From Acidobacteriota bacterium (lineage in GTDB: Bacteria; Acidobacteriota; UBA6911): DNA of 64,000 bases. Below, one piece after another: positions 1 to 16,547 of the stretch; within the stretch, counting starts at the first letter, position 1, and every line of letters begins with the position of its first letter. A program made the position numbers and the translations under genes. The stretch lies in contig OY761556.1 in assembly GCA_963664705.1 (NCBI GenBank), positions 1 to 64,000 of the forward strand, written 5' to 3'. A model generated the notes under the pieces. The model was not told where the DNA came from, ran no database searches, and worked only from the letters and a program-made list of their open reading frames with translations.

Positions 1-1625
1 ACTACGGTGCGCTGAAGCGCCTGGAAAAAAGCCCGTATGTGACCCGCATTTCCATTGACCACCCGGTTAACGGAAGTACCTACACCACCGCGAGAGCCAT
101 TGGTGCGGATCAGGTGTGGGCTGGTGCCTCAGGCCTTCCCGCCTTTAATGGCACGGGAATTGGCGTGGCAGTGCTCGATTCAGGTGTCGACAATCGCGGG
201 GACCTGTCCAACCGGATCGCTTACCGCACCCACTTTGTTGAGAATGATTCCGATGGCTACGGTCATGGAACCCATGTTGCCGGAACGATTGCTGGAAATG
301 GGCTGATATCCGCCTCCAGCACAGGCTTCCCTGTGCAGTACAAGGGCATTGCCTACGGCTCCAAAATTGTCAGCGTCCGTGTACTGGGTTCTGACGGCAG
401 CGGACTCACAAGCAATGTCATCGCGGGCATTGATTGGACCATCACCTACAGGAGTTTATTCAATGTCCGGGTGATGAATCTCTCGCTGGGCCACCCCATT
501 TTTGAATCCTTTAAGACCGATCCATTGTGCAAAGCGGTTGAGCGCGCCGTCAAGGCAGGCATTGTCGTTGTTGTCGCGGCCGGCAATTTCGGCAAAGACG
601 CCAATGGAACGCCGGTGTTTGGCGGAATCACCAGCCCGGCCAATGATCCTGCCGTCATTACTGTCGGAGCCGTGGATACAAAAAATACCATTTCCCGCAG
701 CGACGACACGATCGCCAGCTATAGTTCGCGTGGTCCAACGCTTATCGATGGAATGATCAAACCCGATATCGTTGCCCCGGGAAACAAAGTCATCGCATTC
801 CCGAATCGCGACTCCAGGCTCTTCCTGATGTATCCGTTCAATCGCGTATTCAAGCCCGGCAGTATCGATGTCACAAAAGCCTATTTCACGATGAGCGGAA
901 CAAGCATGGCCACGCCGGTGGTTTCCGGGACCGTCGCTCTGATGCTGCAGGCGAACCCGTCATTGACCCCGAATGCGATCAAGGCGATCCTTGCCTACAC
1001 CGCGGAACGCATGACTGCCCCCAAGATTCTGGAGCAGGGGAATGGCTATCTGAATGCGGAAGGCGCCGTTCGTCTTGCACGCGCCATTTCGCAGAATTCC
1101 AATACACTGGCTCCTGGTGCCCGCTGGATTTCGAATCCTTCTTATATCAAGAACTACAGCACGATTGGCGGTGAAGGCGTGCTTTGGGGCGATGGCGTGC
1201 TTTGGGGTGATGGTGTTCTCTGGGGTGATGGCGTTCTCTGGGGCGATGGTGTCCTCTGGGGTGATGGTGTTCTCTGGGGCGATGGCGTTCTCTGGGGTGA
1301 CGGCGTTCTCTGGGGCGATTCGCTGATGGAATACAACCAGAGTGCTTTCGGCAGCGGCGTACTCTGGGGTGATGGCGTACTCTGGGGCGACAGCATCAAT
1401 GTGGACGGAGCCTCGATTATTGCCGGCACCGGAAGCACCAGCGGAATTCTAAACACGACGTCTTCCAGTTGGAGCGTCGCGATGGCAGATCCCAATACCA
1501 TGGGCAACAGCGACAGCGATTCAATGCTGATTCTTGAGATTCCGCCTTTTGTCATGAGGCTGGCCTATATCGTTGAGATTCTAATTGAGCCCTATTATCC
1601 ACCGACAGATCCCGAGACCATGTAA
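1..1625 (+). CDS. S8 (subtilisin/AprX-like) serine protease with C-terminal GVLWGD repeats; 5'-truncated by the window edge
   Basis: Catalytic triad motifs VAVLDSG, HGTHVAG, GTSMATP and oxyanion motif AAGN. The frame is open from base 3 (YGALKRLEKSPYVTRIS), so the true start lies upstream. Confidence 0.93.
   Translation, partial: YGALKRLEKSPYVTRISIDHPVNGSTYTTARAIGADQVWAGASGLPAFNGTGIGVAVLDSGVDNRGDLSNRIAYRTHFVENDSDGYGHGTHVAGTIAGNGLISASSTGFPVQYKGIAYGSKIVSVRVLGSDGSGLTSNVIAGIDWTITYRSLFNVRVMNLSLGHPIFESFKTDPLCKAVERAVKAGIVVVVAAGNFGKDANGTPVFGGITSPANDPAVITVGAVDTKNTISRSDDTIASYSSRGPTLIDGMIKPDIVAPGNKVIAFPNRDSRLFLMYPFNRVFKPGSIDVTKAYFTMSGTSMATPVVSGTVALMLQANPSLTPNAIKAILAYTAERMTAPKILEQGNGYLNAEGAVRLARAISQNSNTLAPGARWISNPSYIKNYSTIGGEGVLWGDGVLWGDGVLWGDGVLWGDGVLWGDGVLWGDGVLWGDGVLWGDSLMEYNQSAFGSGVLWGDGVLWGDSINVDGASIIAGTGSTSGILNTTSSSWSVAMADPNTMGNSDSDSMLILEIPPFVMRLAYIVEILIEPYYPPTDPETM
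1176..1391 (+). repeat. Coding 18-bp tandem repeat: 8x GVLWGD (1176-1319) plus 2x (1356-1391)
   Basis: Read directly. The copies differ only at synonymous positions. Confidence 0.97.
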
Positions 1626-1656
1626 CCACGAGTAAGCTAATACAGACCAGGAAACC

Positions 1657-3594
1657 ATGATGCGATCAACAAAGACCGGCGGAAATCAAAATATGGTGAA
1701 GAGAATATTAGCGTTATTATTCGTTGCCCTCCCTGTCATGACGATGTCAATGCGTGGCCAGGCATCCAATTCACAGAGCGCTAACGATAAGATAGAAACC
1801 AAGGTAGGTTTTGTTGCAAAGGAGGCGACCAGGACTCGTTCGTTGGTCCCGGCGATCGTCCAATTCGCGGACAATACCATTGCCGCGGAGAGGGAATCGA
1901 TCATCAACGGCCACGGCGGCAAAAGCAAAAAACACTACAGCACGCTTGCTGCCGTTGCGGCCGATCTGGACCCGGCGGGACTCTATTCCCTGTCGGATAA
2001 TCCTCGCGTTCGCCATATTTCCTATGATCACGAGGTTCGATCAAACCCGCACAACACGGTCATTTCCGTGGGCGCAGATCAGGTTTGGGGCAATGGCGGA
2101 AGCACCGGATATACCGGCCGGGGCATCACCGTTGCGGTCATCGATTCCGGAATTGCCATGACCACGGACCTTGCCGACAGTGTTCTTCCCACGCAGATTG
2201 GATTTGGAGTGAAGTCCCCGATTGATCAATATGGCCACGGAACGCATGTTGCCGGTATTGTGGCCGGGGACGGTGTCATTTCGTCAACCAACAAGAATTA
2301 CTATTACGATTACCGGGGGATTGCCCCGGATGCGTCGATCCTGAACCTGCGTGTGCTGGATGCAAAGGGGAGCGGCCAGACCAGCAATGTACTGGAGGCG
2401 CTGGAATGGTGCCTGGCCAACAGGATCCGCTATAACATTCGCGTGATCAACCTGTCTCTGGGGCATCCGGTGTCAGAATCCTATAAGGTCGATCCGTTGT
2501 GCCGGATGGTGGAACGCGCCGTAGCCGCTGGAATGGTTGTGGTGGTTGCCGCCGGCAATTATGGAAAAGATGATGCGGGAAATCCTGTCTATGGCGGAAT
2601 CACCAGCCCCGGGAACGATCCCGCGGTGATCACGGTCGGAGCGGTCAACGGGCACGATACACCGACCCGTGTTGATGACACGGTCGCATCGTACAGTTCG
2701 CGTGGGCCCACTGCGATCGATGGTCTCATCAAGCCGGATATTGTTGCCCCGGGAAACAAGATTGTTTCAACGACCAACAAAAGCATGGCCCTGTACAGAA
2801 ACTATCCGGAAAACCTGGTGACGCTGGCAAACGGCAAATCCAGTTCCACCTATATGGTCCTCAGCGGAACGAGTATGGCTGCTCCGGTGGTTTCCGGCAC
2901 GGTTGCCCTGATGCTTCAGGCAAATCCATCGCTGACTCCCAACACGGTGAAAGCGATCCTGGACTATACCGCGGAGCGGATGACACAGCCCGGTATCCTT
3001 GAACAGGGGAATGGCTACCTCAATGCGGAAGGGGCGGTGCGTCTTGCCCGCGCGATTACAACCGATACCAGAGTTGCCAACGGAATGCCTTGGATTTCAG
3101 ATCCGGGGCTCATCCGTTCCTATAGCATGATTTCAGGCGATGCCATTCTTTGGGGCGACGCCATCCTTTGGGGAGATACCATCCTCTGGGGCGACGCTAT
3201 TCTTTGGGGCGATGCGATCCTTTGGGGTGACGCGATCCTTTGGGGTGACGGGTTGGTATGGGGCGAAAAATTATACGGAAGTGGCCTTGGTGCCTGGAAT
3301 GACTCCCTGATGCTTTTCAAGCAGCCCGCGATGGGCTCGGCCATCCTTTGGGGCGACGGCATGATTCAGGGAGAAGCAGTGGTTTCAGCTACGGGATTGC
3401 TCTGGGACTGCAATGCCGGGACGACCGGAATTCTCGAAACGGTTGCCGGAGAATGGACCTCAGCGTTCATGGATCCGACCTCGATTTCCATTTCGAACGA
3501 AACCATTCTGATTTACGGAGAATTGGGTGCGCCGACAGGGCTTAAACTTGCGGCCACCAATAGCATCTATTACCCAACCCTTCTGGGGCGGTAG
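1657..3594 (+). CDS. Secreted S8 serine protease with prodomain and C-terminal AILWGD repeats (paralog of the upstream gene)
   Basis: Signal-like MVKRILALLFVALPVM (alternative start 1693), a putative propeptide, and VAVIDSG / HGTHVAG / GTSMAAP. Confidence 0.94.
   Translation: MMRSTKTGGNQNMVKRILALLFVALPVMTMSMRGQASNSQSANDKIETKVGFVAKEATRTRSLVPAIVQFADNTIAAERESIINGHGGKSKKHYSTLAAVAADLDPAGLYSLSDNPRVRHISYDHEVRSNPHNTVISVGADQVWGNGGSTGYTGRGITVAVIDSGIAMTTDLADSVLPTQIGFGVKSPIDQYGHGTHVAGIVAGDGVISSTNKNYYYDYRGIAPDASILNLRVLDAKGSGQTSNVLEALEWCLANRIRYNIRVINLSLGHPVSESYKVDPLCRMVERAVAAGMVVVVAAGNYGKDDAGNPVYGGITSPGNDPAVITVGAVNGHDTPTRVDDTVASYSSRGPTAIDGLIKPDIVAPGNKIVSTTNKSMALYRNYPENLVTLANGKSSSTYMVLSGTSMAAPVVSGTVALMLQANPSLTPNTVKAILDYTAERMTQPGILEQGNGYLNAEGAVRLARAITTDTRVANGMPWISDPGLIRSYSMISGDAILWGDAILWGDTILWGDAILWGDAILWGDAILWGDGLVWGEKLYGSGLGAWNDSLMLFKQPAMGSAILWGDGMIQGEAVVSATGLLWDCNAGTTGILETVAGEWTSAFMDPTSISISNETILIYGELGAPTGLKLAATNSIYYPTLLGR
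3142..3357 (+). repeat. Coding 18-bp tandem repeat: 6x [A/T]ILWGD, then GLVWGE, and one further AILWGD at 3340-3357
   Basis: Read directly; synonymous variation between copies. Confidence 0.96.
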
Positions 3595-3635
3595 GTGCGT
3601 GGGCGATTGCGGACATCAGAATAAAATATAGTTTT

Positions 3636-3686
3636 AAAAGGGGCGGCACCGGGTTCGGTAGGGTTTGAAGACCCGTGTCGCCTTTA
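3636..3686 (+). terminator. Probable rho-independent terminator after the protease pair
   Basis: ggcggcac-cgggtt...gacccg-tgtcgcc stem followed by a T-run and preceded by an A-run. Confidence 0.55.
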
Positions 3687-3830
3687 TTGTTCTGTCTATA
3701 CAGCCAGGCGACTTACATGCGCTCAAAGCGGTGTAGGACACCTGTAGCCGAATCTGCCTCAGCCCATAGTTAAGACTAATCATGGACACGCTATTAGACG
3801 ATATCATTAAGGCTAGTCTAAGAGCTCGAT

Positions 3831-5450
3831 ATGACAGATTCTAAAAATTCGGATTCGCCAGCCGGCATGAAGCGCGGACACCATCGCCTGTTCCTTCCGT
3901 ACATGTATGCGATGATCGCGGCGGGCGCGGTTGTGCTGACAACGCAGGCATTTCATCTCCCCAAAGGCTATGACTGGCTTGTGCTTGTGGCGGTAACCGC
4001 TTTTACCGGGTTCTGTTGTGTCAATATTCCTGCTCTGAATTCCAAAATCTCGATTGGCGATTCGCTTTTCTTTACCAACCTGATTCTGTTTGGTGTGCCG
4101 GCCGGCATCGTCACTCAGGCGGTCGATTCGTTTTGCGCCTCATGCCGGGCCAAGACGAGATCGCGGCGCCTCTGGTATGTTCTCTTCAATGTGGCCGCGA
4201 CTACGGTGTCCGCATTCATCAGCGGCAGCGTTTTCTTTCGCCTGATGCCTGGAGGCCCTATCGTGCACAGGGCCGTATCTATCCAGGAGCTTTTTGTTCC
4301 GCTGGGGACCCTGGCGATTACCCACTACCTGGCAAATTCCGGCAGCGTTTCCATCATTGTCGCTCTTGAAAAGCGAAGAAACCTGCTGACTGTCTGGAAG
4401 GATGGATTCCTTTGGACTTCCGTGACGTACTTTATTGGAGCCGTTGCGGCGGGGTTCATTGCACTTACCATCGACAGGGTTGGCCCCGAAGTACTTTTCA
4501 TCATTTCCATTGTTCTGGTTGTCGTATATTTCACCTACAAAACCTACCTGGACAAGGTTGCGGAACTGCACCAGTTGAAAATGAATCTGGAAGCAGAAGT
4601 CCGACAGCGAACCCTTGCATTGCAGGAGGCCACGGAGCGCGCCATAGCCCTGGCAGAGGCGGCAGAGGCTGCCAGTCGCGCCAAATCGGAGTTTCTGGCC
4701 GTAATGAGCCATGAGATTCGTACACCGCTAAACGCCGTGATCGGATACAGCGAAATGCTGCAGGAAGAGGCGGAAGACCTGGGCTATCCAAAACTGATTC
4801 CTGATTTGCAGAAGATCACCTCAGCCGGCAAGCACCTCCTGAACCTGATCAGCGATATTCTCGACTTTTCCAAGATCGAAGCAGGCATGCTCAAACTGAA
4901 CCATGTCGAGTTTGATTTGCACCAGGTTCTCACCGAACTGTTGTATATCTACAGCGGGCCCGCCAACGATAAAGCGCTGAAATTGACTTGCCACATTGAT
5001 GAACTCGTCCCCTCGGCAGTGCTGGGCGACCCCGACCGTCTCCGGCAGATTCTTACAAACCTGATCGGCAATGCGATCAAGTTTACGCATCAAGGAGAAA
5101 TCCAGGTTTCGCTTGCGCTCGAAAAGGTCAGCGAACGGCTTCGATTCCGATTCGAGGTAAAGGACAGCGGAATCGGCATTGCTCCGGAAGCTTGTACCAG
5201 AATCTTCCATGCCTTTTCTCAAGCCGACGGCTCCACAACACGCAAATACGGTGGAACCGGACTGGGGCTCACGATCGTCAAACGGCTGGTTGAGATGATG
5301 GATGGGCAGGTTGGTGTTCACAGCGAACCGGGCTCCGGCTCCACCTTCTGGTTCACCGTTTCGTTTCAACGGGTTGATCTGAGGACGCAAGATACTGCAG
5401 TGTATTCTATATCCGAAAGCTTGGCCGCAAGACCGGAAGTCCGCAGCTAG
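3831..5450 (+). CDS. Membrane sensor histidine kinase (about 6-7 TM input domain, HisKA, HATPase_c; no receiver)
   Basis: H-box FLAVMSHEIRTPLN, N-box QILTNLIGNAIKFT, G1 DSGIGI, G2 GGTGLGL, and a hydrophobic N-terminal region. Confidence 0.93.
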   Translation: MTDSKNSDSPAGMKRGHHRLFLPYMYAMIAAGAVVLTTQAFHLPKGYDWLVLVAVTAFTGFCCVNIPALNSKISIGDSLFFTNLILFGVPAGIVTQAVDSFCASCRAKTRSRRLWYVLFNVAATTVSAFISGSVFFRLMPGGPIVHRAVSIQELFVPLGTLAITHYLANSGSVSIIVALEKRRNLLTVWKDGFLWTSVTYFIGAVAAGFIALTIDRVGPEVLFIISIVLVVVYFTYKTYLDKVAELHQLKMNLEAEVRQRTLALQEATERAIALAEAAEAASRAKSEFLAVMSHEIRTPLNAVIGYSEMLQEEAEDLGYPKLIPDLQKITSAGKHLLNLISDILDFSKIEAGMLKLNHVEFDLHQVLTELLYIYSGPANDKALKLTCHIDELVPSAVLGDPDRLRQILTNLIGNAIKFTHQGEIQVSLALEKVSERLRFRFEVKDSGIGIAPEACTRIFHAFSQADGSTTRKYGGTGLGLTIVKRLVEMMDGQVGVHSEPGSGSTFWFTVSFQRVDLRTQDTAVYSISESLAARPEVRS

Positions 5451-5462
5451 TTTGGAATTTCC

Positions 5463-5504
5463 GATTCCAGATTCCAGATTCCAGATTCCAGATTCCAGAT
5501 TCAT
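5463..5504 (+). repeat. Intergenic heptamer tandem repeat (GATTCCA)x5 plus a partial copy
   Basis: Read directly. Confidence 0.95.
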
Positions 5505-5620: not shown

Positions 5621-6772
5621 ATGAGTACGGTTTGGCTGCGGCCCGGCACATTGAGAGACTGGGTTGTTGAATGGAGAGCCCGGCAGTTCCGGGATCCTGT
5701 GAAGAAACTCGCCTATCTTCGGAATGTGGCGCGCAAAGATTCGGTCGGATTCAGCCATCGACTTCCCCTGTATCTCGTTCCCGTGGTCCTGATGCTGCTT
5801 TTTGGTGCCAGCCGTGTGGAGATGGTTTCGGATGTCAATGCAGGGCTTCGACTCAATAATCCGGCTAAAACTGCAAAAAGTGTCAAGGGTCATACCGGTG
5901 CCGGGGATTTCAAAGCCGTTTGGGTTGTGGAAAACGGCAGGGATTTCGAGACTTTCAGCAATGGTTTGCGCGTAGAGAACCGGTTCCTTTCTCCGAATCA
6001 AAGCCGTTCGTATGTCGTATTCCATAAGGGGATCCCGGGCGAGCTGCAAACCAAACCTGCCGGAATTGTCTTTCACACAAGCGAGAGCGCACTGGCTCCC
6101 TTCCTTTCCGATCAGAATGCTCAGCTCACGCGGATTGGCAGGGGATTGCTGGAATATGTCAGCCAGCGCAAAGCCTATCACTTCGTCGTCGATCGTTTTG
6201 GCCGCGTGTTTCGCGTGGTTCCGGAGACAGATTCCGCCAATCATGCCGGCAATTCGGTATGGGCAAACGGCGACGATGTTTTCGTGAATTTGAACCACAG
6301 TTTTCTGGGCGTCTCGTTTGAATCCCAGACTCGCGATATTGAGCAGGGCATCTACCTGAATCCGGCGCAAATACACGCCGGCCGCCTGCTTGTGGAAATG
6401 CTGGTGGGCAAATATAACCTTCCTGCCGGCAATTGCATTACTCATGCACAGGTTTCCATCGATCCGCAGAACATGACGATCGGATATCACTATGACGGGG
6501 CCGGAGATTTTCCTTTTCAGCAGCTTGGCGTTCCGGATAACTATGCGCTGCCCATCCCGAGCCTCTATGTTTTCGGTTTCGACTTTGATTCAAAATTCCT
6601 GATGTATTCGGGAAACAGGTTGTGGATAGGCATGCGCCTGTCCGAAAAGCGTCTGCGACAGGATGCCGAGTCCAAGCACCTTTCGGTCGAGGCGCATAAA
6701 GAAAATCTGCGCAAGCAGTACTGGGCCTCCATGGATTCGCTGAGGCATCTGGGCATAATCAGGGAGAATTGA
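5621..6772 (+). CDS. Membrane-anchored N-acetylmuramoyl-L-alanine amidase (Amidase_2/PGRP type)
   Basis: IVFHTSE, AYHFVVDRFG, ANHAG, LGVSFE and ITHAQVS motifs; one N-terminal TM segment. Confidence 0.82.
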   Translation: MSTVWLRPGTLRDWVVEWRARQFRDPVKKLAYLRNVARKDSVGFSHRLPLYLVPVVLMLLFGASRVEMVSDVNAGLRLNNPAKTAKSVKGHTGAGDFKAVWVVENGRDFETFSNGLRVENRFLSPNQSRSYVVFHKGIPGELQTKPAGIVFHTSESALAPFLSDQNAQLTRIGRGLLEYVSQRKAYHFVVDRFGRVFRVVPETDSANHAGNSVWANGDDVFVNLNHSFLGVSFESQTRDIEQGIYLNPAQIHAGRLLVEMLVGKYNLPAGNCITHAQVSIDPQNMTIGYHYDGAGDFPFQQLGVPDNYALPIPSLYVFGFDFDSKFLMYSGNRLWIGMRLSEKRLRQDAESKHLSVEAHKENLRKQYWASMDSLRHLGIIREN

Positions 6773-6775
6773 GAA

Positions 6776-7777
6776 ATGAATTCCTACGAAGAAAACCGCT
6801 CGGTCATGGGCATTGATGTCGGAACAAGCCGTGTTGTTGTGGCAAAGCCGGAAGGGCAGGCATTCCAATACCAGTCACAGCTGAATGCCTTTGTCCGGAT
6901 TCCATTTCAAAAGATGACCGAGAGCGTTCTGCAGAAGGAAAGCGTGCCGTATGTTGTCGAGGGTACGCAAATCGTTGTGCACGGCAACGAGTCGGAAACG
7001 CTGGCCAATTTCCTGCAGGTCGAGACGCGGCATCCTATGAGCCGGGGGTTTCTGAATCCCCAGGAGCCGGACAATTTGAAGCGGTTGTCTCATATCATCG
7101 AGACACTCTGCGGAAGACCCGCTGAAAAAGAGCTTGTCTATTACAGTGTTCCTGCAGCTCCGGCCGGCGAGGAAGACACCTTGACCTATCATGAGACGAC
7201 GCTGAGGCAGGTGCTGGAAAGCCTCGGTTATCGCGCCAAGAGCATTACCGAGGGACTGGCGGTGGTATACGCGGAATTGGAGCACACCAATTATACGGGA
7301 TTGGGGATCAGTTGCGGGGGAGGTCTGTGCAACGTGTGCCTATCCTATCTGGCCGTCCCGGTCCTCAGTTTTAGCGTTCCCAAGGCAGGGGATTTTATCG
7401 ATGCAAGTTCGGCCGCGGTGACCGGGGAGCGTGCGAACCTTATCCGGACCGTCAAGGAAGACTCTTTTTATTTTAATGGGCATTTTGACGACAAACTGCA
7501 CCAGGTGATTTCCGTCTATTACGATGGCATGATCCGAGCCCTGGTGGATGCTTTGCGCGATCAGCTTTCAGCATGCCGCGGCGTTTCCAGGCTTACGCGC
7601 CCGGTGCCGCTTGTTCTGAGCGGGGGGACGGCCCTGCCATCGGGATTTCGCGACAGGTTTGAAAGCGTTCTGATGGAAAGCAAGCTCCCGATCTCATTCT
7701 CGGAGATCCGGATGGCGGAGAGTCCGCTGCATTCAACGGCAAAGGGTGCTCTCATCGCCGCAATGATCGATAACTGA
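6776..7777 (+). CDS. Actin-fold ATPase, volactin-like
   Basis: Phosphate-1 GIDVGTS, connect-1 ITEGLAV, phosphate-2 GISCGGGLCNV, adenosine LSGGTA, connect-2 TAKGA. Starts 3 bp after the amidase stop. Confidence 0.8.
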   Translation: MNSYEENRSVMGIDVGTSRVVVAKPEGQAFQYQSQLNAFVRIPFQKMTESVLQKESVPYVVEGTQIVVHGNESETLANFLQVETRHPMSRGFLNPQEPDNLKRLSHIIETLCGRPAEKELVYYSVPAAPAGEEDTLTYHETTLRQVLESLGYRAKSITEGLAVVYAELEHTNYTGLGISCGGGLCNVCLSYLAVPVLSFSVPKAGDFIDASSAAVTGERANLIRTVKEDSFYFNGHFDDKLHQVISVYYDGMIRALVDALRDQLSACRGVSRLTRPVPLVLSGGTALPSGFRDRFESVLMESKLPISFSEIRMAESPLHSTAKGALIAAMIDN

Positions 7778-10469: not shown

Positions 10470-13400
10470 TCATTTGGCGATTTGCAGCAGGGCCCCTGAG
10501 CTGTAGCCTGCAAATTCAGGGGCATACATCGGCTGAATGGTTGCCGGTGCCACTTTGAAGGTTCCGGCCGTTGTGGCGCGGATCCGATATTTGAATGTAT
10601 ATTCACCCTGGGGCAGGCGCTCAAAGAAGAAGTTTGTGCCTGAATCCCTGATTTCTTCGTACCACGAAATTCCCAGGTCCCATTTATGTCGGGACAAATT
10701 TGACGTCGGTTCAAAGCCGGCACCCCGCGGATCGCGCAGGTGCACATATTCCATGGGGTGCTTGCTTGTGATGGAGAGGTGAACTTCCACTTCATCCCCG
10801 GTTTCCAGGCTGATGTTTTTGGTGATCGGCTGCAGAACAAACTCCCGCCCCGTGTTGACGCGTTTGTAGTAGCTGCGTGACAGTAGCAGATAGTCGCCGC
10901 GCGCCTCTTCCGGCAACTGCTCGGTGGAGAAATGCCATGTTGCCGACGCAAACATGTAACCCTTGCCTGTCTTTTCAATTGAAATGGAGGCAGCGGTCGC
11001 CGGATCCATTTTTTCTCCGGGGATAATCACCTGATTTTTCTTGCCGGTGTATTGATCCGGTTCGAAAACAAAGCTTGTCCTCTGATTGCCCACCGTGACG
11101 GTCGCTCCTTCGCGCACTGCAAGCTGCTCGGTCTTTTTAAGATAATGAGCAAGCGAATAGATTACCTCGGCCGTGGCACGCGTCGATTTCCAGTGATTCA
11201 ATTTCTTGTTGAGGAAAATCCACAGAACCATCCCGTCAAGCTTCGGGTCATCCGGAATAAGCTCCATGTCGGCGCGGATGGCAGAGGCGTGGCTTTCGAT
11301 TGTGTCGTTGTACCACAGCCATCCACGGTCTTCGGGCGCCCAGAATGTCCCCTGGTCTTCGGCGGTCTTGGCGGAGTCCAGTACGCTGGACCATACGAGC
11401 ATGGCATCTTTGGGACGATCCATGCGCTTCAGAGTAAGGGACAGATACCCTTTCAGATAGGGGCTGTGCTCCTTCCAGTGTTTAAAGCTGAAATCGAGCA
11501 TGGTCTTGCGCTCGGCCGGCGTGAAGGTACCTTCATACCATTTGCCGTCTGGATAGTTGGAGAGAACGTAGTTGATGAAGGTAATGAACTCCCATCCGCT
11601 GTCATGAGACATCATGTCTCTGACAATTTCGTCGATGTAATGGCGATGCAGGTAAGCCCAGGCAGGCTGAATCATCTCGCGCGGGACGTCAACCCCGAAT
11701 TCGAGCGCTTTCGAAAAGCCGTGCAGCAGATAGAGTGTGATATAGGGGGAGGGAGGGCCGCCCGCAAACCACGGGAATCCGCCGCTGGACGTCTGCATTT
11801 GCTTGAGTTTGGCAAGGGCAGATTCCCGTTGTGCTTTCGCAATACGTGAATCGAGAACATTGAGCAGATCGGAAGTATTGGCTTCGCCCCCCTTTGCCAT
11901 CTGCAGCCATGGAGTTTCTTCCAGCGCCATTTTGCGATTGGGGTCTGCGGCATCCCACTGTTCGAATTGGGTCTGTCGCGCAGAAAACTCCTTGGCCATC
12001 CGTTCAACCGCGGGATACTGTCGGTAGAGAGAAGAGAGAATTCCGGTCGAGACAAAGCGGTTCAGCGTCTGCTCGGTGCATTCATACGGATAATTCACAA
12101 GGTAGGGAAGGGCAGACAGCACAGAATAAAAAAGCTGCGCGTCGAGTGTGACAACCATTTGTTCGTTGATTCGCGTCGGATCATTGTTGCGCGCCAGGTC
12201 GTCGAACCGGAGAATACGTTTGGAATCGTCCTTAAGTGTGACAAAGCGCGATTGCATCAGATGCATGCGCCCTGGAAGAATCGGAATGGGTCTCAGTTCT
12301 CCATCGGAGAAGTCGCCGGATACCGCCGTGACTTTGAATGCAATCTGGCCTACTTTCGACGGCGTTACAATGGGAAAACTGAGATTGGTACCCCCGCCCG
12401 CCGGAACCAGAAACGCTTTTCCCTCTGCATCGGATCTCGCCAGGCCAAACTGGGATAGAACGCTCTGCTCGGTATCGGTGTCGATGATGTCGAACTTCAG
12501 GGCTCCTTTCAGCTCTCGCTCCGATGCATTATTGACCACCACCTTTATCTCAGCCCGATCTCCTTCGCGCAGGAATCGAGGCAGATATGGCCTCACCATC
12601 AGATCCTTGACTGTTTGTACCTGCCGGGAGATCGCGCCGGCCTTCAGGTCGCGCGTGATGGCATGAACCCAGACATTCCATGATGTCACTGAATCGGGGA
12701 CTTTGAATTCAAAGGTTACCGTCCCGTCCGCATCGTTCAGGAGATGAGGATACCAGAAGGCTGTCTCTTTGAATTCAGTGCGGAGTTCTGCCGGCTGTGA
12801 CTGTGGCTGCGGCGTGTCCTTTTTATCCATCTCCGCCTTCTTTTCCATCGGCGCGGCGGCTGGCATGGGCGGAGGGGCGGCCATGACTGCCTGATCCATT
12901 GCCATGGATGCGCTGAGTGTTTCCAATACGCGGCCTCCGACAGCTCGAGCTCTCATCCCGGGTCCGCCGATTCCATATCCGCTGAGGAATTGCAGCGCAT
13001 CCTTCCTGAGAGACGGGATTCCCGGACCTGATTGGAATCCACGGCTATCCATCCACAGTTGTTGCGCTTCCCGAAGGTTGGCTCGCGCGGGAATCAGGCC
13101 GGCCCGGTATGGATACAAGCCCAACGGATTGAATGGAGTGTGGGGCGCAAAAACATCCAGGCTCCGGTCGTACATATACGCCAATAGTTCTGCCGAGGGG
13201 ATTGAGACATCTTTTCCTTTGGGACCCGATACCTTGACCCGCCAGGTTTCCTGCTGTCCCGGCCGAAGCTTGTCTCGGAAGGTGGAAAACTCCAGTCTCA
13301 ATTCCTTGTTGTCCCATGGGACCATCAATGCAGACTGAAGCTGGATGAACTGGTCATCGCGCACCAGCGTCATGCTGATCCCAAGTCCACCGCGATCTTT

Positions 13401-16400
13401 TTCCGTAATGGGAATCTCAATAATCGATGGACTCTCCCCGGAATATATTTCTCTGCGCTGAATGCTCTTGCCATCGCGAACCACTTCAAAAACGATGAGC
13501 TGGTCCTTCATCCCGGAATGGACCAGGATTCGCGCTTTTTCGCCAACTCCAACGGATATCTTTTCGGGCATGAACACAGCGGGAATCGGAAGCCGGAAGG
13601 ACGCGGCGCCCACGATGAAGTTTTTCTTCAGTTGGTAGGTTGTGCCGAAATCATCGGTGGTTTCATAGGTCAGCCGGTATGCGCCCGGTTCCAGGTGCGG
13701 AACCGAGATTTTTCCTTCGCCCCGATCATTGTGGGCAACAGATCCCGAGGATTGGGTTGTGCCGGCTGTCCAGGTTGCCAGGACCGCTTCAGGATTGTAG
13801 TCCGGATTCCATCGTGCTCGCTCTTCATCTCCCGGGGTATTGTATTGGGTCTTCCCCTTGAACTCTTCAGGGACGAATAAAGGTTGTTCGGCCGGAAGCA
13901 GCGTTTTTTCCGGTCCCCTCAATTCGGCAATATGCCACGTCCCTTTTCCCGCTTTGGGGCTTCCATCCAGGCTGGTGCGCAGCACGTTGATGGCGACCGG
14001 TTCATTTTTCATGAAAAAGGCTTTTTCGAGAATTGCGGTGGCTTCCACGGAAACAAAGCCGAGCCGGAACGATCTCTCGGCGGAGCGGGTCTCGCCTCCT
14101 TCATCCGTGATGTCTGCAGAAACCGAATATCTGTAGGTAACATCCTTGCTCTTCCCGAGCCGCTCATCCGCTGCGGGTGAAAAGGCAAATGAGAATATTC
14201 CGTCCTGCTGAAGGTCGGCTCGCCCCGTGGCCACGGTCTGCGAACCTGAAGCGCCGTGTGCGGCAAATCCGCCCCACCGGAAATAGCTCCACCAGTACGG
14301 GAACACCGGCTCCCTTTTGACCATCCACTTGACTTGACCACTTGTGACCGGCAACCCGAAGTAATATTTTGCTTCTCCCTTTATTCTGGCGGGCTTGTTG
14401 AGGCGAAGCGGTTCGGTGGGATCCAGTATTTTGACTTCGTAGGTGGGCCGTTTGTATTCTTCCACTTGAATGGAAGCCTGGCCGTTTCTGGAGCTTTCCA
14501 GCCGCCAGTGCCCGAGCGCCCGGCCGCCCGGAATGGTGAATTCGCCGGAAGCCGTTCCGAAGCTGTTTGTGGTCACTGTTTTTGAGTCGACCACCTGGTT
14601 GTTCAAATCGCGCAGATAAATAGTCAGGGTGGCAGCCGGTGTCGTCTCAAAGCGGATCCCATCCGCCTTGCGGATATAGGCTACCGTTTTCCAATGCAGC
14701 GTCTGCAGCGGGCGATAGATGCTGCGGTCCGTGAAGAGAAGCGTGGCTGCCGTGTCCGATGGAGCGTACTCCTCGCTCAGATGGAAGGGTTGAGGATCAA
14801 AGGCGAGTTCGCTGCCGTTTGAGGCAATCACCACCTGCGGATAACTGATTCCAGTCTCTCTGTGGAACCGCACCATTCCGCGGCTATCGGTTATGGCGGA
14901 TTGCGCTTTCTGGTGTTTTCTCTGGCTCCAGTCCAGTCGATAAAGCATTACCTCCGTACCGGGAACCGGTTTTCCTGAAGAGCCGGATAGGACGGTGATT
15001 TCCGCCTCCGAAACCTGCTGCCTTGTGACAAGAACGAGATCTCCGACAGACATATAGAGTCCGTGCAGCTCGTTGTCTTCTTTTCGAAATCCAGGGCGAC
15101 CGGAAGAAGTAATCAGGTAGACGCCCCGATTCCTGATGGGCGGAATGACATAGGTTTTGTGCATCCGAAAATCAGGCGTCGCTGCAAGCGGAACTTCCCA
15201 TTGATAGGCTGGAGAAGTTTTTGTCGCCAGGGTTTCCAGTTCATGATCGGAAGGCAGCAGATTGTAGTCGTCGGATGTTTCGATCGTCTTCAAAAGGTCG
15301 ATCGGATATGCGCGAAAGTAGACTCTCTCCAGGTTTTTATGTTCGATGAGCAGTGATGTTTTTAGTGGGTTGTCATTTTGCATCCCATTCATCGAGTAAT
15401 CGGGCGCTTCTATGGACTTCTGAATAGCGAGGCAATGCCTGCCACCATGGGAATCCGGGAAAGCCGTTTGCCCCTTGATGGCAATCTGGCGCGCCCGGAT
15501 GAGTGAGTCCGCCTCCTCCTGACTGCGGATAAATTCGGAAAGCTGGGCCATGCCTTCGGACCACCACGGGACGCTGGTGTAGGATTTCAGTTCTTTGACG
15601 AGGGCATCCTGAATGGCTTGCCTGTCTTCAGCCTGCGTAAAATTCTGATGCAGTTGCCGGAAGGTTTCGAGCCTAGTTTCCAGCCGCGCTTCCATTTCTT
15701 TTCGCTGCGCATGCCAGTTGCCAAGATCCGCAAGGATGTAGCATATCTTTTCCAAAGGATGCCGTGATGGATCGACCAGGGAGACGTCTCCAACGGGTCC
15801 ACTGAGGAGATCCCCAAGGTTGAGACGATAAAGCTCATTCAGTTGCTCCGGCCGCCATCCGTTTGTGTCGGCGAGCATTTCCACGCGCATATAGGAAACG
15901 GCGTCCCGCATGGTTGGCCGAACCCCGGCCGGGTAATTGTTGGGAAGGACAAACTCCTTCCATTTGTCCGCGGGCAAGTCGCCAAGCTGATGGCGTTCTT
16001 TCCAGATAATTTCAAAAGCCTTCTGCGCTTCCTCATAAATCTGATCGCGCGTCCACGCCTTCAAATCGACGGTTTCCCGCGACTCGGTTTTTTCCCGACG
16101 GTTGATCTCCCAGGAATAGCTACGGGCGTAGGTAGTCAGAGTATTGGCATAAAACAGATTGAGCAGGGATGTACTCGCGGGATCGGAAGGCCAGGGCTGC
16201 TCTTTGAGAAAGCGTACGGCGGTTTCGTAGCCGTGCAGAGAAATGCGCAACTGGGTATACCGGATCAGGCATCGAGTCCACTCGCTGTCGTTTTTTTCAC
16301 TTCGCGCCTTGGTGAGCATCTTTTCCAGGAGCGTTGAAGCGGCTTCGTATTTCTGTTCTCCCATCAATGAATCAGACAGGCGCCATCCATCCGCGAAATT

Positions 16401-16547
16401 GCCATTCCAGTCGGAGGCGTTTGGTTTTGCTGCCGCCGGATTGGAACTTTTCGGCTTTGACTGAAAACTCAAGGAGATGGCAATCCCCAGACCGAGCATG
16501 AAAAAAAGAAACAGCAGGAGCGTGGTTTTGTATTGGCTTTTGGTCAT
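10470..16547 (-). CDS. Bacterial alpha-2-macroglobulin family protein
   Basis: 2025 aa; TDRSIYRP, VEEYKRP, LRTEFKETAFW, thioester motif YPYECTEQ, C-terminal MYAPEF. Confidence 0.93.
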   Translation of the reverse strand: MTKSQYKTTLLLFLFFMLGLGIAISLSFQSKPKSSNPAAAKPNASDWNGNFADGWRLSDSLMGEQKYEAASTLLEKMLTKARSEKNDSEWTRCLIRYTQLRISLHGYETAVRFLKEQPWPSDPASTSLLNLFYANTLTTYARSYSWEINRREKTESRETVDLKAWTRDQIYEEAQKAFEIIWKERHQLGDLPADKWKEFVLPNNYPAGVRPTMRDAVSYMRVEMLADTNGWRPEQLNELYRLNLGDLLSGPVGDVSLVDPSRHPLEKICYILADLGNWHAQRKEMEARLETRLETFRQLHQNFTQAEDRQAIQDALVKELKSYTSVPWWSEGMAQLSEFIRSQEEADSLIRARQIAIKGQTAFPDSHGGRHCLAIQKSIEAPDYSMNGMQNDNPLKTSLLIEHKNLERVYFRAYPIDLLKTIETSDDYNLLPSDHELETLATKTSPAYQWEVPLAATPDFRMHKTYVIPPIRNRGVYLITSSGRPGFRKEDNELHGLYMSVGDLVLVTRQQVSEAEITVLSGSSGKPVPGTEVMLYRLDWSQRKHQKAQSAITDSRGMVRFHRETGISYPQVVIASNGSELAFDPQPFHLSEEYAPSDTAATLLFTDRSIYRPLQTLHWKTVAYIRKADGIRFETTPAATLTIYLRDLNNQVVDSKTVTTNSFGTASGEFTIPGGRALGHWRLESSRNGQASIQVEEYKRPTYEVKILDPTEPLRLNKPARIKGEAKYYFGLPVTSGQVKWMVKREPVFPYWWSYFRWGGFAAHGASGSQTVATGRADLQQDGIFSFAFSPAADERLGKSKDVTYRYSVSADITDEGGETRSAERSFRLGFVSVEATAILEKAFFMKNEPVAINVLRTSLDGSPKAGKGTWHIAELRGPEKTLLPAEQPLFVPEEFKGKTQYNTPGDEERARWNPDYNPEAVLATWTAGTTQSSGSVAHNDRGEGKISVPHLEPGAYRLTYETTDDFGTTYQLKKNFIVGAASFRLPIPAVFMPEKISVGVGEKARILVHSGMKDQLIVFEVVRDGKSIQRREIYSGESPSIIEIPITEKDRGGLGISMTLVRDDQFIQLQSALMVPWDNKELRLEFSTFRDKLRPGQQETWRVKVSGPKGKDVSIPSAELLAYMYDRSLDVFAPHTPFNPLGLYPYRAGLIPARANLREAQQLWMDSRGFQSGPGIPSLRKDALQFLSGYGIGGPGMRARAVGGRVLETLSASMAMDQAVMAAPPPMPAAAPMEKKAEMDKKDTPQPQSQPAELRTEFKETAFWYPHLLNDADGTVTFEFKVPDSVTSWNVWVHAITRDLKAGAISRQVQTVKDLMVRPYLPRFLREGDRAEIKVVVNNASERELKGALKFDIIDTDTEQSVLSQFGLARSDAEGKAFLVPAGGGTNLSFPIVTPSKVGQIAFKVTAVSGDFSDGELRPIPILPGRMHLMQSRFVTLKDDSKRILRFDDLARNNDPTRINEQMVVTLDAQLFYSVLSALPYLVNYPYECTEQTLNRFVSTGILSSLYRQYPAVERMAKEFSARQTQFEQWDAADPNRKMALEETPWLQMAKGGEANTSDLLNVLDSRIAKAQRESALAKLKQMQTSSGGFPWFAGGPPSPYITLYLLHGFSKALEFGVDVPREMIQPAWAYLHRHYIDEIVRDMMSHDSGWEFITFINYVLSNYPDGKWYEGTFTPAERKTMLDFSFKHWKEHSPYLKGYLSLTLKRMDRPKDAMLVWSSVLDSAKTAEDQGTFWAPEDRGWLWYNDTIESHASAIRADMELIPDDPKLDGMVLWIFLNKKLNHWKSTRATAEVIYSLAHYLKKTEQLAVREGATVTVGNQRTSFVFEPDQYTGKKNQVIIPGEKMDPATAASISIEKTGKGYMFASATWHFSTEQLPEEARGDYLLLSRSYYKRVNTGREFVLQPITKNISLETGDEVEVHLSITSKHPMEYVHLRDPRGAGFEPTSNLSRHKWDLGISWYEEIRDSGTNFFFERLPQGEYTFKYRIRATTAGTFKVAPATIQPMYAPEFAGYSSGALLQIAK

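Follow-up and report, generated by a model that had tools for sequence, protein, structure and literature searches.

Repeat-tailed subtilases linked to a MASE9-like membrane sensor: a candidate peptide-signalling module of Acidobacteriota

At the beginning of contig OY761556.1 (C1), the single 6.89 Mb contig of an Acidobacteriota bacterium (GCA_963664705.1), two subtilisin-like proteases whose C-terminal tails repeat one short peptide many times over stand directly ahead of a membrane histidine kinase: Why does an enzyme carry so many copies of one peptide next to a sensor? We analyzed this locus within a window of 64,000 nucleotides that forms the start of the contig, and compared it with related loci from other genomes. 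Repeat-tailed subtilases and a MASE9-like sensor domain very probably constitute a real, conserved and apparently undescribed module. As to its function, we assign a probability of roughly one half to the reading in which peptides cut from the tail are taken up and detected by the sensor from inside the cell.

Subtilase 1 (positions 3..1625, plus strand; Pfam S8 E 4e-55) is cut by the window start. Its frame continues from the opposite contig end, which encodes a signal-peptide-like start and a prodomain, and the two contig ends have 9 identical bases in common. This in-frame junction and the shared end bases make a circular chromosome and a complete gene 1, with ~649 amino acids in all, probable. 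Subtilase 2 (1657..3594, plus strand; 645 amino acids) comprises a signal-peptide-like start, a prodomain, the catalytic domain and the repeat tail, and is 53% identical to subtilase 1. Both proteins pass the cut-off of the Peptidase S8 family (PF00082; 188 and 171 bits vs 21.8), and the oxyanion Asn as well as the catalytic D/H/S triad could be located, the latter at window positions 177/264/903 in gene 1 and as D163/H194/S406 in gene 2. This bears out the first-pass annotation, which had described two co-oriented S8 proteases with intact triads, each carrying an array. The array contents given there also hold in a position-by-position count: The ten GVLWGD units of gene 1 divide into eight in the main array (1176..1319) and two behind a spacer (1356..1391), and the seven [A/T]ILWGD units of gene 2 into five AILWGD and one TILWGD in the main array (3142..3267), which also holds the single GLVWGE, and one extra AILWGD (3340..3357), all on the plus strand. 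The kinase (3831..5450, plus strand; 539 amino acids) consists of a MASE9-like membrane domain (3876..4565, plus strand), HisKA and HATPase_c, and its best NCBIfam matches are TorS/BarA-type cores. As claimed earlier, the membrane domain is the sole input, but it has eight predicted helices, two of them short, in place of six to seven transmembrane segments. Between protease 2 and the kinase lies a hairpin followed by a U-rich stretch (3639..3685, plus strand; -24.6 kcal/mol, z -2.7, 3/200 shuffles equally good), a possible terminator or attenuator that the terminator scan did not call.

The window arrays are maintained by selection. The ten units of gene 1 comprise nine distinct DNA sequences, and across their 45 pairs we counted 111 synonymous and 0 non-synonymous codon differences, which places the peptide itself under selection. 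Since arrays of this kind turned up only in the two window genes and one paralogue when all six frames of the 6.89 Mb genome were scanned, they are not a product of chance; slippage or an assembly artefact as their origin is ruled out by the synonymous diversity together with the family-wide conservation. The paralogue (C1:4642708-4644729) carries GVLWGD units and has no adjoining sensor; ~8 kb away, at C1:4630199-4634713, we noted by eye nitrogenase-like genes (NifH, NifD and a sigma-54 activator).

For the comparison, 150 protease matches were listed, from which 3 of our own genome, 2 unpublished and 7 tandem or duplicate ones were set aside and 18 near contig starts dropped; the first 100 of the remaining 120 plus 76 further loci gave 176 loci, whose related genomes are not independent of one another. 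The protease is present in 84/301 genomes of the phylum, with only about four candidates scored per genome; the 301-genome tallies include the unpublished G049 and G150. Acidobacteriota account for 72/76 loci of the second set, and the four non-acidobacterial bins may be sporadic or mis-binned. In the phylum of a Gemmatimonadaceae bin, none of 80 other genomes yielded the protease. A plasmid search returned no protease match either.

Repeat tails are present in nearly the whole family, with 181/190 complete relatives matching our repeat patterns and 7 of the other 9 showing repeats by eye. By class, 126 tails contain Trp, 55 are Trp-less (e.g. DGVLVSD) and 9 fall outside the patterns. The conserved unit is not the hexapeptide proposed at first, but a five-residue core, x-hydrophobic-hydrophobic-W-(G/S/A). 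Among the 181 proteins there are 98 distinct consensus cores, with 89% identity within a protein and 3-32 units per tail. A spacing of 6 dominates (88/116 Trp arrays) and spacings of 7-14 are common; because 21 of these 116 arrays are mostly not 6-periodic and a further 38 are mixed, the core is evidently kept while the linkers vary. The flanks of the linker-spaced cores do not fix the P1 residue. Both window tails, which had been credited with a shared layout, indeed carry YYP close to the C-terminal end, but this ending is specific to a subfamily: It is similar in P0001-P0007 and P0009, and the pattern matched 1/181 other tails, that one not YP. A hydrophobic stretch precedes the prodomain in 160/191 proteases, and by this crude test the enzyme is likely exported. 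We dropped the idea that the tail represents tandem copies of the propeptide cleavage site, as the junction motifs were too variable and the pattern often missed them. One genome (G226; L052, L228, L231, L247) contains several copies of the trio protease[SILWS]-protease[GVFWS]-sensor, with the two-protease layout of the window, and at another locus (L139) five Trp-less repeat subtilases stand in tandem, no two of them with the same core.

The first-pass annotation had asked for a tabulation of neighbours, expecting the same membrane domain on histidine kinases, GGDEF or HD-GYP proteins, and this is what we found: The sensor domain occurs in 100/176 protease loci, within 1.1 kb in 91, vs a chance linkage of ~1% estimated from 235 sensor matches in 85 genomes. 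Protease and sensor occur together in 75 of the 301 genomes, the protease only in 9, the sensor only in 10 and neither in 207. We put no p-value weight on the linkage because the genome-wide sensor alignment was built from neighbours of these proteases and because kin are not independent; a first-round profile made from the window domain's own homologues only, no neighbours included, already recovered 105/108 sensor hits. In the reverse direction, 64/148 listed sensor genes have a listed protease no more than 10 kb away, and a protease stood near 10/40 others (40 random ones from 69 with enough flank, of 84), so that roughly 40% of sensor genes are orphans. Of six genomes closely related to this one, 4 carry the sensor and none the protease at the threshold used. 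The domain is found on kinases, HD-GYP and GGDEF-EAL proteins or alone: A motif scan of 108 open reading frames assigned HD-GYP to 33, HD-GYP+GGDEF to 20, a kinase to 11, GGDEF-EAL to 11, GGDEF to 3 and no output to 5, while 25 showed the membrane domain only, some of these being cut by locus ends. The median identity between sensor domains is 28%, and the outputs are interchangeable. The output-less domains (P0108-P0136 and others; L048, L050, L062, L128, L196, L201) appear as tandem doubles of ~460 amino acids or as singles directly 3' of a protease.

What kind of sensor is this? The window domain reaches 16-17 bits against MASE9 (PF20972; E 0.009), below the gathering cut-off of 24.3; judged by its sequence it is thus MASE9-like, and we do not assign it to MASE9. 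Across the sensor family, 51/85 members match MASE9 at E<=0.05 (best 7.5e-12) and 14/85 weakly match a family of energy-coupling factor (ECF) S-components. MASE9 is described as fused to HD-GYP, HD-GYP-GAF-GGDEF and GGDEF-EAL, with poorly conserved periplasmic loops (bioRxiv 10.1101/2021.11.05.467447). Our domain shares its eight helices with a short pair, its conserved aromatic and Asn/Ser positions and its varied outputs including these fusions, and differs in the sub-threshold Pfam score, the kinase fusion and the protease link. The preprint passages at hand mention no ligand, kinase fusion or protease link, and the main text contains no instance of "ECF", "S component" or "protease"; the only MASE9 protein named there as studied is HdgA (bioRxiv 10.1101/2021.11.05.467447), for which no developmental phenotype was seen, the authors suggesting that the activating signal was missing (PMC6205966).

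The structural model of the sensor (predicted local distance difference test, pLDDT, 92.6) points to an ECF S-component fold. In Foldseek the first 12/12 rows are ECF S-components (probability 0.97-1.0; template-modelling (TM) score by target 0.52-0.70), although with weak E-values, and a profile search gave a weak sequence match to 4HZU_S over helix 1, loop 1 and helix 2. The predicted fold and this weak helix 1-loop 1-helix 2 similarity connect the sensor to S-components such as RibU (5KBW), BioY (4DVE), ThiT (3RLB) and 4HZU_S, from which it differs by two extra helices, a predicted inverted orientation and signalling outputs in place of a transporter partner; no ECF genes were present among 65 neighbour representatives scanned. 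In transporter S-components the loop between helices 1 and 2 forms an outward-facing lid. For the sensor, the positive-inside rule suggests the opposite: Mean Lys+Arg counts on the lid side are 2.1 for the hairpin, 2.8 for the H4-H5 loop and 2.6 for the H6-H7 link, with 1.7 and 2.3 at the termini, vs 1.1, 0.04, 0.9 and 0.5 in the alternate loops. Helix parity counted from the cytoplasmic kinase gives the same orientation, and 11/15 conserved positions lie on the lid half. On these grounds the pocket and its lid are predicted to face the cytoplasm. AgrC and ComD are peptide-sensing kinases with a multi-helix membrane input, encoded beside their peptide source. The window kinase likewise combines such an input with an adjacent candidate peptide source, but it has another input fold, another kinase class and a predicted inward pocket. 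With the pocket predicted to face inwards, the AgrC-like receptor implied at first, reading its peptide from outside, is not supported; no AgrB or ComAB-type exporter is among the recurrent module neighbours.

The commonest non-regulatory neighbours of the module are genes of an Opp-type importer. A family-5 binding-protein gene is present in 31/100 sensor loci vs 4/76 others, and six genomes, five of them chosen knowing that one such gene adjoined the module, have just 1-3 family-5 genes each. Our genome has two, and the better-scoring one (536 vs 110 bits) lies beyond the contig junction, with its end ~1.8 kb upstream of gene 1. There, 5' of window position 1 and on the same strand as the proteases, C1:6890894-6893940 (L207:14895-17941) encodes the family-5 solute-binding protein, an Hpt protein and a NarL/LuxR response regulator; farther upstream, C1:6883001-6886213 encodes a histidine kinase of the propeller type (Reg_prop, Y_Y_Y). 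A second MASE9-like gene (HD-GYP-GAF-GGDEF; C1:975705-978095) has the best OppB/OppC matches at a distance of 5.6 kb, and the stretch C1:968028-978095 (L208) comprises OppB/OppC, a 1803-amino-acid kinase-AAA-TPR-GAF-sigma54 activator and this HD-GYP gene. Going by its genes, this stretch is the other half of a module that related loci hold intact and that is split in this genome.

With the sigma-54 consensus, we called sigma-54-type sites upstream of 43/198 proteases vs 94/3960 control windows, none of them upstream of gene 1 or its paralogue and none between gene 2 and the kinase; sigma-70 sites showed no excess, and the upstream region contains no Rfam element. A palindrome, with one mismatch allowed, occurs 4 times in the genome, at C1:6893980 and 6894390 upstream of gene 1 and at 4644816 upstream of the third paralogue among them. 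It is a candidate operator; the pattern was derived from gene 1, so that only the paralogue match is independent.

Taken together, these observations would fit the following circuit: The protease, likely exported, would cleave its tail and so release a single short peptide in multiple copies, the exact product presumably being the core G-V-L-W-G or A-I-L-W-G with or without Asp, and an Opp-type importer would bring the peptides into the cell. The kinase would bind them in its predicted cytoplasm-facing pocket and pass a phosphoryl group to the NarL/LuxR regulator encoded just upstream, which may bind the palindrome and thus feed back on protease expression. Cleavage, exact product, import, binding and phosphotransfer are all steps that we infer. 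Constant cores within variable linkers fit a multi-copy precursor, and an inward pocket together with an importer agrees with a route in which peptides are released, taken up and then sensed from within the cell, as Phr peptides are (PMC5199041). In the Rap-Phr/RRNPP systems of Bacillus, the cell exports a precursor that is cut outside, Opp takes up the resulting penta- or hexapeptide, and the peptide is detected inside the cell; the core is repeated in some Phr precursors, and a reference title in the same article names subtilisin, Epr and Vpr as processing enzymes (PMC5199041). The likeness lies in the proposed outside cleavage, Opp import and inside sensing, with Opp-type importer genes present and linked here. 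The precursor, by contrast, is fused to the protease in 3-32 copies, an S-component-like membrane domain with outputs of the kinase or cyclic di-GMP type takes the place of the soluble TPR protein as receptor, and the host phylum is diderm. Having no TPR receptor, the module is not a member of RRNPP; the chances are about even that it realizes the Rap-Phr logic with unrelated parts.

Several observations weigh against this circuit. No binding-protein gene is present in 69/100 sensor loci, and only 1/46 Trp-less loci has one; 76/176 protease loci are without a sensor, and about 40% of sensor genes are without a protease nearby. The Foldseek E-values for the sensor are 0.027 at best. Core and receptor, moreover, do not co-vary once the protease tree is accounted for: Core distance correlates more strongly with the protease (r 0.51) than with the receptor (r 0.29), for which a partial correlation of 0.04 (p 0.12, n=86) is left, or of 0.008 (p 0.43, n=61) for Trp types alone. 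Tail-receptor co-evolution was thus not found by partial Mantel, nearest-neighbour, tree or column-scan tests, a negative at the level of the whole domain that could overlook a few pocket residues. Trp-less tails correspond to one receptor clade plus one long branch and therefore count as about one event, and the columns that separate receptors of Trp from those of Trp-less tails do not cluster on the pocket side (10 vs 8). We did not use a correlation between binding protein and core distance (r 0.46), which is uncorrected for shared history. The claim that the kinase reads released peptides stands in part: Variable linkers around a constant core and the importer enrichment favour release, while a core-receptor match beyond shared history is missing.

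The tail itself gives rise to a real rival, which we nevertheless consider unlikely. The tail may stay attached as a beta-solenoid or amyloid-like stalk for anchoring, assembly or substrate binding, within a feeding circuit: The protease would digest protein outside the cell, Opp would take up the products, and the sensor would respond to generic peptides or to an amino acid. The first-pass annotation had offered such a tail as its second option, and the structural evidence is divided: For a homologue's tail, the ESM Atlas model looks similar to the beta-helices of bactofilin and Ag43 (TM 0.47-0.59) and its Atlas features match clusters with Hexapep members, whereas AlphaFold leaves the array of gene 2 unstructured (pLDDT about 30, possibly owing to misaligned repeats) and shows no solenoid. 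Neither window tail has a Pfam hit, Hexapep included. The dominant spacing of 6, the missing co-variation, the many loci without a sensor and Trp-less units such as GVVIGD, which look like hexapeptide beta-helix repeats, would all suit this rival; a unit number of 3-32 and a variable spacing would not. Moreover, a feeding circuit leaves unexplained why nearly every member has its own uniform core, why protease pairs with two different cores recur and why an acetyltransferase is tied to particular core types. Because the Atlas model resembles beta-helices, a folded stalk could alternatively be a storage form of the precursor. ESM Atlas clusters also contain stand-alone tail-like proteins of 88-144 amino acids in Acidobacteriota, either free precursors or contig fragments.

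Quite improbable is a second rival, close to the form first proposed, in which the released peptides reach the sensor without import, via periplasm or lipid, as hydrophobic and perhaps N-acylated peptides. It would account for the importer missing from most sensor loci and for the acetyltransferase (GNAT) genes: One family, GNAT-A, is present in 20/46 Trp-less loci, which carry it instead of the importer, vs 0/113 Trp loci, and another in 13/113 Trp loci, mostly NIVWG-type and mostly without a sensor. In L046, L051, L069, L071, L086, L126 and others, a GNAT gene lies between a Trp-less protease and the sensor; its product could acylate the N-terminal Gly of released peptides. The MASE9 preprint, too, proposes binding within the membrane (bioRxiv 10.1101/2021.11.05.467447). 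Against this stand the predicted cytoplasmic side of the lid and the conserved residues, an importer enrichment that is specific to sensor loci, and the window locus itself, which has an importer-type binding protein and no GNAT-A. Viewed as a RiPP with a fused protease-precursor, the window locus shows no modifying enzyme clustered with the precursor; elsewhere the GNAT genes are the candidates for this role.

Very unlikely, finally, is a tail that acts in cis as pseudo-substrate or C-terminal propeptide controlling protease activity or secretion, with a sensor that regulates protease expression on an unrelated small molecule: The closest solved relative, the Thermococcus subtilisin-like protease 3AFG, has a C-terminal propeptide, the tail end of gene 2 is partly ordered in the model (pLDDT 59-79), S-components bind vitamins according to the titles of the matched structures, and the predicted S1-floor residue, in subtilisin subsite numbering, tracks tail type (His in 39 Trp-less vs 1 Trp protein, probably one lineage), yet such control does not need 8-30 identical copies and leaves the importer unexplained. 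The match to 3AFG (E 8e-47), which places the proteases with AprX/Tk-SP-like subtilases by prodomain and S8 catalytic domain, stops at residue 458, and that search yielded no solved structure related to the repeat tail.

The surroundings hold further genes. Immediately 3' of the kinase stop codon, a 7-base unit is repeated in tandem (window 5449-5502), followed on the plus strand (5621-7777) by an Amidase_2 gene and a homologue (E 2e-75) of Volactin, an actin family of archaea. On the minus strand (10470-16547), 5 kb from the proteases, lies a gene for a secreted protein of 2025 amino acids that by eye resembles a bacterial alpha-2-macroglobulin protease trap.

We found no published description of the module in searches that left subscription journals and bioRxiv supplements outside, and no paper on peptide signalling in Acidobacteria when searching for quorum sensing and subtilisin. 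Acidobacteriota are abundant soil bacteria, and about a quarter of the sampled species (75/301) have both genes. If imported tail peptides are indeed the signal, the module would represent a hitherto undescribed kind of signalling between bacterial cells, with a novel class of peptide-signal receptor and a novel route to the signals themselves. As the candidate ligands are exact and written in the gene adjoining the sensor, the question is a cheap one to put to synthetic peptides. A bolder version, which we advance tentatively, sees the enzyme as its own multi-copy pheromone precursor and the receptor as an inverted vitamin-transporter subunit reading imported peptides, with about a hundred five-residue codes serving as private languages, some N-acylated by partner GNATs, in a widespread quorum-type system. 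The sensor family comprises 10,767 clusters at 50% identity, and the ESM Atlas lists MASE9-like clusters in Actinomycetota at scores under 0.9; should the private-language version be true, these peptides would be the first class of ligands assigned to a sensor family with >10,000 sequence clusters.

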